A stretch of 64,000 bases of DNA, taken from a virus. Lineage: Duplodnaviria; Heunggongvirae; Uroviricota; Caudoviricetes. Each line of letters opens with the position of its first letter. Within the stretch, counting starts at the first letter, position 1. The stretch is from the IMG/VR virus record IMGVR_UViG_2541047938_000006; one strand, 5' to 3'. A program made the position numbers. Shown here piece after piece: positions 57,001 through 64,000 of this stretch.

Positions 57001-60000
57001 TTGATATGGGGTTAAGCGGCAATCCCCAATGGGTTTGCCACTGATGTTTGCTCACCCTGTTAGAGGTGAACGACCAGCAATGTTAAAGAGCGGTGTTACT
57101 TATTCAGCCTGGTTCGGATGAGGAAACAGGTGCGGTAAGTCCGGGCGAATTTCGTAAGCCTTAACCTGACCATTGGTGGCATTAACGATAGCGAAAACTT
57201 TTTCAGGAGAAACTTTTCCGCCTCGCAACCATTTATGAACAGCGGGCTGTGATACGCCGCAATCAGCTGCAAGTCGTTTTTGACTGCCAACAATATTCAA
57301 GGCTCGCTGAATCACTAAATTCATGAGCATACCTCTACAGCAAATAAAGCATAACCAAAAATAACATGAGTTATACACCAGGGCAATAACAATTGTTGTT
57401 TTACTTTTGATAACCGTGGTTATAGATTACAGGTATGAAAACATTCGCAGAAAGACTAAATGCCGCCATGAGTTCAGCCGGGTTGTCACAAGCACAACTT
57501 GCAGACATGGTGGGGGTATCACAACCAGCCATACAAAAGATGTCATCTGGTAAAACAACCGGATCACGTAAAATGGTCGAATTAGCCAACGCGTTAAGAG
57601 TTCGCCCTGAATGGCTAAGCTCTGGTATAGGGTCAATGAGACCACAGAGCGCAGAAGAGCCATCTAATGCTCGGGAATCATCTTTAAAAGCTATCGCCTG
57701 GGATGATCATCAAAATGATAATGACGAATTTGTTGCGCTCCCCCTTCTAAATATTTCACTTTCAGCTGGCGGAGGAAGTTGTGCATTGGAGGAGTCCGCA
57801 GAATTCTCTCTAGTTTTTAGGCGCTATTACCTGAAAAAAATGGGAGTTCCAGAAAAAGCGGCAAAGTTGGTCAGGGTTGTTGGGCAAAGCATGGAGCCAA
57901 CACTCCATGATGGTGATGTGGTGGGGGTAAACACGCAAGATACGAGCATCAGGGATGGTAAAACATATGCAATTTGCCAAGCTGATTTGTTAAGGGTAAA
58001 AACGCTCATAGCCACGCCAACATCGGTAATTATCAGATCGATAAACCGCGAAGAGTATCCTGATGAAGTAATGAACAGAGAAGAATTCTACAAAAACGTA
58101 AGAATCATAGGGCGAGTGTTCTGGTCATCACATAGCTGGTAATCAGACTCCAACTGAACTTTTGCTATAAGAACACTCACGAAGAACGGCCTTTTATTGT
58201 GCTCAATACCACCGATGGTAAACCATTCGCCAAGTAGCCAATTCATAAAATGCCATTTCTAAATCCCCCGGCTCCAGTGCCGGGTTTTATTTACTTAATT
58301 ACACAGTCGCATATCCTGAAGTAACACATCTATAGCTAACTTCACAGCGAGATCATCCAATTCATCATGGTGAAGCACTCGGATCATTCCCGCAATAGCA
58401 TCTGCTGAAATAGCTTCCCCAGTAGCAATAACCTCAAGCAACGACACCCCTAGAATTTCGACTACCCGCTGGTGCAACACACCAAATTCCCCTTCGATTA
58501 ACATGCAATCACCCATAACAATCAGCCTTTCCCCCTTGAAAATATCACGCGGATACCACAAAAAATAAAATATTTTTGTTATCAGTCATTTATAACGTTT
58601 TTCATAAAATGATAAATATAGTTATTGTACAACCAGATAACTTAGGTTATCTTCAATTCAACAGCAGGACGCTGGAAGCCAAACGGAACAGATTGGCCGG
58701 CTCTTTAACATTGATGGACTCTCAACCTAACCGTTGAGACCAAAATCTAAGTGATTTTGGGGATGACGCGAATTTCAGTTGCAAGGCCGCGATCGAGAAG
58801 AAAAACACCTCGACGCGTCATACACCAAAGCCACTTAAAGGAGACCATCATGGTAACCATAATCTGGAAAGAATCCAAAGGTACGGCAAAAAGCCGCTAT
58901 AAAGCTCGCAGGGAAGAACTTATTGCAGAGCGACGCAGTAGTGAAAGACTGACACGGAAGATTGCGCTAAAGATCTCTGGTTGCGTCGGAGCAGACAAAG
59001 CAGTATCACTCGGAAGCCTTCGCTGCAAGAAGGCAGAAGAAGTCGAGAGTAAACAGAACCGTATTTACTACCGCAAACCACGCAGTGAAATGGGTGTGAC
59101 TTGCTCAGGCCGCCAGAAACAACGCGGAAAATCAATTCCGGCTTATTACGATTGAGGTTAATGATGAAGTTCAAATTGAACGATGAAGTTAAATGGTCAA
59201 GCTCATCAAACGGTGTAACGAAGGTAAAAATCGGGTTTATCGTCGAGGTGATTCCTCCTGGTGTCAACGTAAAAAAATTCGAACTAGGCCGTCTGCTAGA
59301 TGCACCTGGCCTTCCGAGGAAAGAAGAGAGCTATATAGTTTGTGTAGGTTCAAGACCCGGATCTCGTGCCAAGCCAAAATATTACTGGCCGCGAGTTAAT
59401 AACCTGCGTCGATTACAACAAAAAACTTGCGCCCTTAAAACTTGAAATTCTTCAGGCCGCCGGAAAAATGCAGCTTAAACTGGACGAATTCATCGACTGT
59501 ATGGATGAAATGAATAAAGCAGTTCAGAAGCTTAAAGAGCTGACCGCCTGATATTAATAAATTGCAACTACCGGAGTTAACTATGAATGAAACAGAACTG
59601 AAGCACATTATCGCCCTGCTTCTGGAAGATGCCAGACAGGTTTATCGACTTAGCCCAAATTCCGCAACGCAGGAACGCATCCGGATAGCGGAAACAGCAC
59701 TGAAACAGGACAATGGAAACGGCATATCCAAATTTAGCGCCGCCAGTGAAAATGAAGTAATAGAAATAAACAGCAATATCAGCGACAGTTGCGTCGCTTA
59801 CAGCCACCAAATAATTCGTGTAAGTGCAAGAATAATGGAAGTGATGGCAAGTGAGCTTGAAAAGAACAACATCAAGCCCACTGATTGTTGTTTAAGAACC
59901 GTAATGAACGTTATTTATTACTCGATGTTCCGAAGTCGCTAACAGCGTCGAGTTTTTCATTAAAAAATGATTCAAATGCATCGTAAAATACGGCAATAGC

Positions 60001-63000: not shown

Positions 63001-64000
63001 ACAAAACGGGTCAGAAGAGCAACAGCCAGGGCCAGTAGCGCAACCGGAGCTGGAAAAAAACTGCCGCGTCTGTGGTCAGACTGGCGGGGGTAACTGCCCT
63101 GACTGTAGTGCGGTAATGGGCGATAGCACTTACACAGAAACTTTTGGAGAAAATGACGCCGCTGATGGAGAAGACTCAGCACAAACTGAGGAGAAGATCA
63201 TTCAGGAAAACTCTGTTGATGCCGCTCAGGAGGGCGAAACCGTTGTTCAGAACGAGCCAGGCAGTGATACGTCCGGCGATGACGCCAATTCTGAGCCAGT
63301 AACTCTCGACTGGAAAAGACAGCTCGTGATTGCCGCCGTCTATGGTTTGTGCGCCAACCCCGCATGTATAGCCACAGCGCCAGCAATCCCTGATATCGCC
63401 ATCATGATTGCCAACAGGCTTGAAAATTTCGGAGGTGATAAATCATGAATGCCTGGCTTATCCCCGATCGCATTGAAGAGCAGTCATGGGCACGACACTA
63501 CCAGCAAATTGCCCGTGAAGAAACTGAAGCTGAGCTGGCAGACGACCTGGAAAAAGGTCTGCCCCAACACCTGTTTGAATCGCTATGCATCGATAATCTG
63601 CAACGTCACGGGGCCAGCAAAAAAGCTATTTCCCGTGCATTTGATGACGATGTCGATTTTCAGGAACGCATGGCAGAACACATCCGCTACATGGCTGAAA
63701 CCATCGCCCGTCACCAAATTAATATTGATTCAGAGGTATAAAACGGATGAGTACAGCACTCGCAACGCTGGCAGGGAAGCTGGCTGAACGTGTCGGCATG
63801 GATTCTGTCGACCCACAGGAACTAATCACCACTCTTCGCCAGACGGCATTTAAAGGTGATGCCAGCGATGCGCAATTTATCGCATTGTTGATCGTCGCCA
63901 ACCAGTACGGCCTTAATCCCTGGACGAAAGAAATTTACGCCTTCCCTGACAAGCAGAACGGCATCGTTCCGGTGGTTGGCGTTGATGGCTGGTCCCGCAT

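Follow-up and report, generated by a model that had tools for sequence, protein, structure and literature searches.

RecE and RecT are the workhorse of recombineering. The first ~560 residues of RecE are described in reviews as being 'of unknown function', yet they enhance both linear-linear recombination and direct cloning (PMC11611040). Nuclease-less 'RecE-2' proteins, relatives of the RecE proteins of Rac and Gifsy-1, were reported from lambdoid early-left operons with their role given as unknown (Genome Res 2025, PMC12315714), in one sentence of that paper and without an anatomy. In the Rac prophage of Escherichia coli K-12, recE lies downstream of kilR, and the small RNA KilS encoded before kilR was validated in K-12 (PMC8175672). 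The kilS-kilR region of Rac and the dicF-dicB region of Qin-like prophages share one order: a small RNA ending in a terminator hairpin, a structured leader of ~180 nt and a division-inhibitor gene. In lambda, the operon segment between N and gam is the ral-sieB-cIII-kil region, likewise with a division inhibitor.

The N-to-gam interval of the prophage

The window (the whole analysed stretch of 64,000 nucleotides) is an E. coli lambdoid prophage, and its N-to-gam interval is the middle of an N-antiterminated early-left (pL) operon, in agreement with its preliminary description as a pL-operon accessory interval. The following features were delimited.

58751..59155, plus strand: N-like antiterminator gene (PHROG 271 'anti-termination protein N-like', E=4.4e-35)
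59161..59445, plus strand: 94-aa ORF (PHROG 11941 over its full length, E=3.5e-46)
59366..59551, plus strand: 61-aa ORF (partial match to PHROG 2539 and PHROG 2565)
59562..59942, plus strand: 119/126-aa ORF (PHROG 2982, E=1e-77, residues 8-126)
59911..60120, minus strand: antisense 69-aa ORF (PHROG 2605 over its full length, E=9e-45)
60309..60400, plus strand: putative KilS/DicF-like small RNA, with a hairpin plus U-run at the 3' end (the shape of an intrinsic terminator)
60401..60576, plus strand: STnc100-like structured leader of kil, with a long outer helix that extends to the kil ribosome-binding region
60577..60798 (ORF 60559/60577), plus strand: kil, KilR-type FtsZ/cell-division inhibitor (NCBIfam PRK11354, 154.5 bits against a cut-off of 92)
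60882..61268, plus strand: 128-aa ORF (PHROG 2016 over its full length, E=2e-78)
61376..63448, plus strand: 690-aa nuclease-less RecE-family protein, 'RecE-N + tail' (BLASTP, PF06630, PHROG 607, PRK09709)
63445..63741, plus strand: gam, host-nuclease inhibitor of GamS length (Pfam Gam PF06064, E=4.8e-65, 216 bits, full length)

The ORFs, including the single antisense one at 59911-60120, lie where they had been placed earlier. The statement that they belong to no recognisable family did not hold, as all ORFs of the interval have matches in Pfam, PHROG or NCBIfam. Outside the 690-aa gene, the interval is an ordinary lambdoid kil/small-RNA region with a KilR-type kil, a KilS/DicF-like terminator-sRNA, a structured kil leader and members of four small PHROG families without assigned function, one of them a gene remnant. 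The division inhibitor of the window is of the KilR type, in which it differs from lambda, and the interval yielded no homologue of ral, cIII or kil from lambda. The N-like gene, an ORF from 58751 with a RefSeq start at 58850, gave a weak match to Pfam N_peptide and is annotated in the identical prophage of SCU-104. A PADLOC search, the library of which models defence proteins and not anti-defence proteins, returned 0 matches for six proteins of the interval.

The interval is a mosaic, in which a Rac-like part, spanning the KilS-like RNA and everything up to about codon 600 in the 690-aa gene, continues into a lambda-type gam-bet-exo module. Homology to PhiR5_2 starts at ~59412, and the 94-aa ORF, which lacks a PGAP annotation in SCU-104, is located upstream of that point. 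The 61-aa ORF covers only profile positions 183-229 of 229 (PHROG 2539) and 142-199 of 204 (PHROG 2565), and relatives carry a 238-aa gene in its slot. Because only the profile ends are matched and the ORF sits at a mosaic junction, it is probably the C-terminal remnant of a gene of ~230 aa. The 119/126-aa ORF (RefSeq start 59583) is conserved in PhiR5_2, phiSTEC1589 and 75/02 Stx. The antisense ORF is annotated in SCU-104, and L007 features an antisense 69-aa ORF at the same position upstream of dicB. The 128-aa ORF occupies the slot of Rac racC and precedes the 690-aa gene in all close relatives; a relationship to RacC was ruled out, as the two proteins show no similarity.

The noncoding stretch of ~440 nt (60121-60576) noticed earlier is real, with the folding of 60300-60580 exceeding that of shuffled sequences (z=-3.9; MFE z=-3.88), and consists of the KilS/DicF-like RNA and the kil leader. 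The RNA is identical to K-12 kilS (b4833) at 70 of 98 positions, with conserved 3' hairpin and T-run, and is situated directly upstream of a kilR-type leader as in K-12; by homology, it would thus be a KilS. Its 5' part differs from that of DicF. The Rfam DicF model (RF00039) scored 29.2 bits at 60346-60395, below the gathering score of 48, compared with 39 bits for Rac KilS and 75-77 bits for the true DicF of L006 and L007, which lies in the same slot before dicB. Duplex energies of the KilS-like RNA with ftsZ were no better than those of shuffles, in a test with little power to discriminate, as genuine DicF itself hardly exceeded shuffles in it. The leader matches the Rac kilR 5'UTR at 139 of 175 positions and reached 31 bits with Rfam STnc100 (RF02076) at 60397-60591, below the gathering score of 47. 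Two true STnc100 copies (130-139 bits) are present elsewhere in the window. The order of small RNA, leader and division-inhibitor gene is therefore common to the window, Rac and the Qin-like prophages, whereas ydaE, which follows kilR in Rac and some relatives, is missing from the window. The kil gene also matches PHROG 294 and is annotated as kil in RefSeq. With this KilR-type gene, the interval has a kil of its own that the 690-aa gene has not displaced, and the proposed location of the 690-aa gene in the lambda kil slot has to be corrected: kil and the KilS/DicF-like RNA already lie 600 bp upstream.

Identity and anatomy of the 690-residue protein

The 690-aa protein was regarded earlier as an orphan, a view overturned by Pfam, PHROG, NCBIfam and BLASTP, all of which place it in the RecE family. 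BLASTP against Rac RecE gave 54% identity (query 58-601, RecE 50-555, E=4e-180), Pfam PF06630 (Exonuc_VIII) reached 48.5 bits against a cut-off of 25 at residues 55-197, and PHROG 607 was matched at profile positions 1-618 of 883. The NCBIfam profile PRK09709 was covered at positions 1-598 of 877 with 740 bits, below the equivalog cut-off of 1269, while Rac RecE obtained 1830 bits. The PD-(D/E)XK nuclease domain (PF12684/DUF3799), which is found in Rac RecE and in a 1049-aa relative, is absent. Judged by sequence, the protein thus has the N-terminal ~600 residues of the RecE family (exonuclease VIII) but not its nuclease domain, despite its RefSeq name 'RecE family exodeoxyribonuclease'. The following segments were distinguished.

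Residues 1-100 (61376..61675, plus strand): small alpha/beta N-terminal domain
Residues 140-412 (61793..62611, plus strand): helical core, where the family is most conserved
Residues 491-510 (62846..62905, plus strand): near-invariant linear motif LAAxRGE[FY]VxGISDPxDPKW, with disordered segments on both sides
Residues 563-577 (63062..63106, plus strand): putative zinc knuckle/ribbon CxxC-x7-CxxC (C563-x2-C566-x7-C574-x2-C577)
Residues 643-690 (63302..63445, plus strand): two-helix C-terminal tail in place of the RecE nuclease domain

Over the core, Rac RecE (866 aa) and the 690-aa protein are ~85-90% identical. Both have the RGEFVxGISDPxDPKW motif and the CxxC...CxxC knuckle and are encoded at the same operon position downstream of kilR. 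Rac RecE differs in its defining PD-(D/E)XK domain (RecE residues 564-866, PF12684), instead of which the 690-aa protein ends in a 45-residue helical tail, and in its partner gene, as the gene of the window is followed by gam-bet-exo and not by recT. The core of ~270 residues, predicted with very high AF2 confidence, contains the motifs SGAxAGGGNxTDR, FDIY, PGxLDYSRA and LTExDH, of which SGAxAGGGNxTDR, DYSR and ExDH occur at 70-90% frequency over ~80 diverse representatives; no column is invariant in the alignment of the whole RecE-N family. The linear motif was present in 28 of 87 family representatives with every C-terminal architecture and, among phage genomes, only in RecE-like genes, including those of Gifsy-1/2 and Klebsiella phages. 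The cysteine motif anticipated at the C-terminus exists, but is positioned ~115 residues before it; it is shared by Rac RecE and the members of the E. coli subgroup, occurs in 7 of 87 family representatives, was predicted with low AF2 confidence and is absent from distant tail-bearing members. Searches of the PDB with the 690-aa protein yielded no sequence match and no Foldseek match with E<0.9.

The acidic character with long tracts described for the protein was confirmed (124 D+E versus 68 K+R, pI 4.6). The tracts (residues 101-139, 413-458 and 512-644) coincide with segments of pLDDT<50 in the AF2 model, their length and sequence vary among relatives, and the one tract for which selection was measured (601-644) is the least constrained segment, with a dN/dS of 0.55 compared with 0.05-0.28 in the others. 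Ocr, ArdA and Gam are folded DNA mimics. The AF2 model, by contrast, displays disordered tracts and no rigid acidic surface of this type, and no fold match was obtained. With tracts below pLDDT 50 and the measured one least constrained, the earlier suggestion of DNA mimicry found no positive support, while mimicry by disordered acidic tracts may still occur.

The C-terminal tail, its relatives and the coupling to gam

The tail is predicted by AF2 to form two amphipathic helices (646-659 and 662-683; pLDDT 50-76). Its motif QQLxIAAxxGLCANP recurs in relatives of 21-30% overall identity from five other genera, with L650, A653, A654, G657, C659, N661 and P662 being invariant at this distance; it was found in prophages of Buttiauxella, Citrobacter, Lelliottia and Cedecea and, in Serratia, in a short tail-only ORF. 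A Pfam search with the tail gave no match, and tblastn of phage genomes retrieved the 690-aa gene only. An origin from another protein family was rejected after a profile search of 5.8 billion proteins, which returned only fragments of the family of the 690-aa protein. An uninterrupted ORF of 680-700 aa is retained by many clusters of relatives with 76-99% identity, and dN/dS amounts to 0.23 over the gene and to 0.05 in the tail, where 10 synonymous differences face 2 non-synonymous ones. With its length kept, a dN/dS of 0.23 and a recurring tail motif, the gene is real and conserved and not the fusion or read-through artefact considered initially. According to these findings, the 690-aa protein appears to belong to 'RecE-2', as it is a RecE relative encoded in an early-left operon and its AF2 model shows no domain past the core except the two-helix tail. 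Unlike the published sentence, the present description also includes the conserved tail, the linear motif and the presence of such genes at loci lacking a recombinase.

The family is modular in its C-terminal part, as revealed by BLAST of domain pieces against the family representatives. Fusion partners of the RecE N-terminal module elsewhere are PD-(D/E)XK, a DnaQ-like domain (PF16473) and RecT (PF03837), and intragenic mosaicism with a nuclease-bearing gene is evident from 95.5% identity over nucleotides 1-1586. The RecE-N-DnaQ-like 'exonuclease' (814 aa) of the ompW prophage of E. coli O157:H7 shares the N-terminal module (PF06630, DNA segments) with the 690-aa protein and is encoded in the same slot, after dicB/DUF1482. 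It differs in ending in a 3'-5' exonuclease domain (PF16473) and in the direct succession of its gene by xis-int.

In the window, the stop codon of the 690-aa gene overlaps the gam start as previously noticed (TGA/ATG, in ATGA), and the gam Shine-Dalgarno sequence GGAGGTGA lies within the final (tail) codons, an arrangement indicating that the two genes are translationally coupled. The identical SCU-104 prophage continues with gam-bet-exo-DUF4222-int, of which bet and exo are beyond the window. The comparison with other lambdoid prophages proposed earlier showed a conserved position, with the 128-aa ORF before and gam-bet-exo after the 690-aa gene in each close E. coli/Shigella relative examined. 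Distant tail-bearing relatives are encoded directly before xis-int. The eight tail-bearing loci of other genera, all those returned by a scan of the genome collection with the tail-bearing alignment, possess no conserved downstream partner and no gam, bet, exo or recT within 8 kb. Docking of the tail on lambda Exo, Bet or Gam was therefore rejected as a general rule.

Possible functions of the RecE N-terminal module

The favoured explanation, held with about even confidence, is that the 690-aa protein acts as a non-catalytic adaptor of the recombination module. Under this proposal, the RecE N-terminal module would be an autonomous adaptor without catalytic activity, made early together with the recombination genes. 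Its folded core and linear motif would bind to a partner that is conserved, be it a protein of the host or a DNA structure found at ends or forks. In the course of evolution, the module would have acquired varied C-terminal additions for DNA processing or self-association, namely the helical tail, RecT, or a nuclease of 5'-3' or 3'-5' polarity, and in the prophage of the window the tail version would be co-translated with Gam-Bet-Exo. The tail would most likely serve self-association or partner docking, whereby self-association is a guess from the predicted amphipathic helices of pLDDT 50-76. As the distant tail-bearing relatives have no recombinase nearby, a protein of this type needs no phage recombinase, and the lack of gam, bet, exo and recT within 8 kb of these loci makes a role outside recombination quite possible.

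Such a role is at the centre of an alternative that appears possible, if on the unlikely side, in which the module is a host-takeover or anti-defence effector neutralizing a conserved host protein (a nuclease, a defence sensor or a replication factor) via its core or motif, with the acidic tracts maybe mimicking nucleic acid and the nucleases of relatives being add-ons. The tail-bearing relatives in prophages without a nearby recombinase and the strongly acidic composition are in line with this, and a near-invariant motif between variable flanks is the pattern that docking to a conserved host target would produce. Moreover, the neighbouring racC-recE pair of Rac is a retron blocker-trigger pair, and early-left operons gather such functions (bioRxiv 10.1101/2020.06.22.160242). 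Nevertheless, the protein matched no characterised inhibitor family or fold, AF2 models its tracts as disordered and the measured one is the least constrained, unlike in the folded mimics, and the repeated fusion of the RecE-N module to recombination enzymes points to DNA transactions. A distinctly less probable view takes the conserved core as an enzyme of unsolved fold, so that the 690-aa protein would be catalytic without the RecE nuclease; the conserved polar motifs of the core (TDR, DYSR, ExDH) might be the signature of an enzyme and not of an adaptor. While the frequency of the glycine-rich and polar motifs over ~80 representatives and the very high AF2 confidence of the core agree with this view, comparisons of sequence and fold with Pfam, NCBIfam and the PDB brought up no similar enzyme family, and the RecE-N family lacks an invariant column. 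Finally, the gene might be a decaying leftover of recE, whose 3' end was replaced together with recT by gam-bet-exo, the tail being fortuitous read-through. In favour of this, the region is visibly mosaic, with RecE homology breaking off at about residue 600, shortly ahead of the junction to the lambda-type module. This account is nonetheless already contradicted and highly improbable, given the intact ORF in so many clusters, the purifying selection on the tail and the invariance of its motif in distant relatives from genera without a Red module.

Apart from the favoured adaptor, a broader and rather improbable proposal concerns the N-terminal two-thirds of RecE as a whole, which, rather than a mere addition to a nuclease, might be an autonomous early phage effector of unsolved fold docking on a conserved enterobacterial host factor via the core and RGEFVxGISDPxDPKW. 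The tail-only versions would represent its basic form, acting in host takeover, counter-defence or redirected processing of host DNA ends independently of a phage recombinase.

As the remainder of the interval is an ordinary kil/small-RNA region, the main value of the finding is the natural access it offers to the role of the N-terminal part of RecE. The existence of natural nuclease-free versions under purifying selection implies that the RecE-N module has a function of its own. The 'exodeoxyribonuclease VIII' label is an annotation error on hundreds of database entries without a nuclease domain. The conserved core, the linear motif and the C-terminal tail are now defined as mutable targets, and inducible phages carrying a gene of the 690-aa type exist with PhiR5_2 and 75/02 Stx.

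Gene content and origin of the N-to-gam interval

Open reading frames were taken from a six-frame listing of the window, which reproduced the ORF positions of the preliminary description. The latter had recognised no family among the ORFs of the interval, but a PHROG family was found for each of them.

Features between the N-like gene and gam (six-frame ORF list)
ends at 59155: N-like gene
59161-59445 (+): small ORF, PHROG match
59366-59551 (+): small ORF, PHROG match
59562-59942 (+): small ORF, PHROG match
59911-60120 (-): antisense ORF, PHROG match
60559/60577-60798: kil ORF
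60882-61268: 128-aa ORF (orf128), PHROG match
61376-63448 (+): 690-codon ORF

A prophage of E. coli SCU-104 and other strains contains the interval at 100% identity. In SCU-104, the interval is followed by gam-bet-exo-DUF4222-int and the host genes ynfG/ynfH/dmsD, and close relatives are PhiR5_2 (97.5%), phiSTEC1589-Stx1c, Shigella 75/02 Stx and POCJ13. The SCU-104 DUF1627 gene (L004:641-1412; replication region, inside window 40000-59160), located next to replication genes, is annotated as frameshifted; hence, this prophage may be defective in part. Sequence homologous to the relatives' 238-aa gene begins at about 59412, and the 94-aa gene at 59161-59445 (PHROG 11941; without RefSeq annotation) stands in place of the first ~190 codons of this gene in PhiR5_2. 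The annotated 61-aa ORF (59366-59551) matches only the C-terminal end of 204-229-aa PHROG profiles and is most likely what is left of a longer gene at a mosaic junction near 59412.

The suggestion that the large protein occupies the kil slot of lambda was not borne out, since the interval has its own kil gene at 60577-60798, a KilR-type division inhibitor (NCBIfam, 154 bits vs a cut-off of 92). The structured noncoding stretch described upstream was found as such: no notable ORF lies between 60121 and ~60576, and the RNA of 60300-60580 folds with z=-3.9, its long helix enclosing the leader and reaching the kil ribosome-binding region. This stretch can be aligned to the Rac sequence upstream of kilR, with 60309-60400 corresponding to the K-12 small RNA KilS (70/98 identical, conserved terminal hairpin and T-run) and 60401-60576 to the kilR leader (139/175 identical). 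In K-12, KilS was validated by northern blot (PMC8175672). In prophages carrying dicB, the equivalent positions are taken by true DicF (75-77 bits) and a leader resembling STnc100. The stretch in the window gave only sub-threshold Rfam matches (DicF 29 bits, STnc100 31 bits). The small-RNA, leader and kil part is an arrangement of a known kind.

Further RNA elements occur in the window. Two full-length STnc100 RNAs, a family which the kil leader weakly resembles, neighbour each other in the prophage's rightward part (47139-47348 (-) and 47624-47817 (-); 130 and 139 bits, well above the Rfam gathering score). At 51458-51656 (-), a P1/P7-type module for antisense immunity is embedded in the lambdoid prophage, with isrK (76 bits), C4 antisense RNA (75 bits) and the a1/b1 element targeted by C4 (47 bits) side by side, and 4036-4124 (+) matches sRNA-Xcc1 above the gathering score (69 bits). 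The gene ydaE (57-58-aa zinc-binding protein), which follows kilR in Rac and some close relatives (L002:5387-5560, L020:4250-4426), is absent from the window (60798-60882, compared with these two loci). Between orf128 and the 690-aa gene (61268-61376), a stem, AAATCCGG...CCGGATTT, with a T-rich run after it is shaped like a weak terminator within the N-antiterminated operon.

A RecE-family protein without nuclease domain

The 690-aa protein is a RecE-family member without nuclease and with a conserved tail; its gene evolves under purifying selection and shows translational coupling to gam. It matches PF06630 (Exonuc_VIII), and its whole length aligns to profile positions 1-618/883 of PHROG 607 and 1-598/877 of NCBIfam PRK09709, the latter with 740 bits and thus below the equivalog cut-off of 1269. 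Identity to Rac RecE is 54% (BLASTP; query 58-601, RecE 50-555), with near-identity across residues 240-600 including the four cysteines. The similarity stops short of the nuclease domain of RecE (residues 564-866; PMC11611040), and PF12684, present in Rac RecE and a 1049-aa E. coli relative, was not found in the 690-aa protein. Accordingly, the database name 'exodeoxyribonuclease VIII' is misleading here. The acidic character noted before (124 acidic vs 68 basic residues, pI 4.6) and the CxxC...CxxC cysteines (563, 566, 574, 577) were confirmed, as was the overlap with gam: the TGA shares bases with the ATG of a 98-codon gene identified as Gam (Pfam, 216 bits), and the junction sequence GGAGGTGATAAATCATGA places the gam ribosome-binding site within the final codons of the 690-aa gene.

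Domains of the AF2 model (mean pLDDT 66)
residues 1-100: alpha/beta domain
residues 101-139: disordered segment
residues 140-412: helical domain (pLDDT >90 for 300-410)
residues 413-458 and 512-643: disordered segments, the latter containing the cysteine knuckle
residues 646-659 and 662-683: two terminal helices

A compact 491-aa homologue reached a mean pLDDT of 81 and ~95 in both folded domains. A PDB sequence search with the 690-aa protein returned nothing, and its function is not readable from the fold. Between the disordered segments, residues 491-510 (window 62846-62905) form the linear motif LAAxRGE[FY]VxGISDPxDPKW, which is near-invariant in 28/87 family representatives across all C-terminal types, with variable flanks, a pattern suggestive of a docking site for some conserved partner. 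Among phage genomes, the motif occurs in RecE-like genes only, including those of Gifsy-1/2 (Salmonella), SPN3UB and Klebsiella phages besides those of E. coli.

A fused or read-through artefact, considered earlier, is contradicted by many database clusters of 680-700 aa at 76-99% identity and by a dN/dS (relative to the 75/02 Stx allele) of 0.23 overall, with 0.13-0.19 in folded parts and 0.55 in the last acidic linker. For the last 46 codons it is 0.05 (10 synonymous vs 2 non-synonymous changes). Among 1.84 billion cluster representatives, searched exhaustively, only 204 relatives were found, ~20 of which share 21-30% identity with the query yet carry the same terminal motif LTYxQQLTIAALQGLCANPA....DDIPxMA with seven invariant columns. 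When genomes were scanned with this motif, such genes turned up in Buttiauxella, Citrobacter, Lelliottia and Cedecea. The tail is thus no read-through sequence but a C-terminal element that has been conserved. In Serratia quinivorans, a 79-aa ORF (L016:6001-6240; also L017, L018; 9 contigs) comprises little beyond this tail. The prophage that carries it is short and degraded, and the ORF takes the equivalent place there, between DUF1482 and xis-int; it represents a remnant or else a stand-alone tail protein of minimal size.

Exchange of C-terminal modules and possible role

Among relatives, the RecE N-terminal module is joined to a PD-(D/E)XK C-terminus followed by recT, to a DnaQ-like 3'-5' exonuclease domain (PF16473) with xis-int directly after, to RecT in frame and without nuclease (representatives P0124 and P0220), to 350-450-aa extensions without Pfam match, or to the helical tail. 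Within E. coli, the first 1586 nucleotides of the tail-type gene are 95.5% identical to a nuclease-type gene; thus, intragenic recombination exchanges the modules. The 690-aa-type gene is always followed by gam-bet-exo in the relatives from E. coli and Shigella. In other genera, the tail-bearing gene precedes a small variable ORF, xis and int (8/8 loci); gam, bet, exo and recT were not found within 8 kb by tblastn, and upstream ORFs are too small for annealases. Tethering to downstream Red proteins by the tail consequently fails as a general rule, and the 690-aa-type protein is independent of a phage recombinase.

These recombinase-free contexts favour the main rival explanation, a host-directed or counter-defence role of the N-terminal module, for which the same Rac operon offers a precedent in racC-recE, a retron blocker-trigger pair (bioRxiv 10.1101/2020.06.22.160242). 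A link to recombination is indicated by the repeated fusion of the module to recombination enzymes and by the position of the 690-aa gene inside a recombination module here. The DNA mimicry formerly proposed for the acidic tracts finds no positive support, since the model shows them as disordered and, of all segments of the gene, the one tract measured is under the least constraint.

'RecE-2' proteins, which likewise lack the nuclease domain, are mentioned but set aside in a survey of lambdoid recombination modules from 2025 (PMC12315714), so the existence of nuclease-less RecE proteins was already known. To our knowledge, the conserved tail, the invariant motif, the range of C-terminal partners and the recombinase-free occurrence are new relative to the literature searched. 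On the favoured reading, the RecE N-terminal module would represent an autonomous adaptor with DNA ends or a host factor as its target, to which nucleases, an annealase or the tail may be interchangeable C-terminal attachments.
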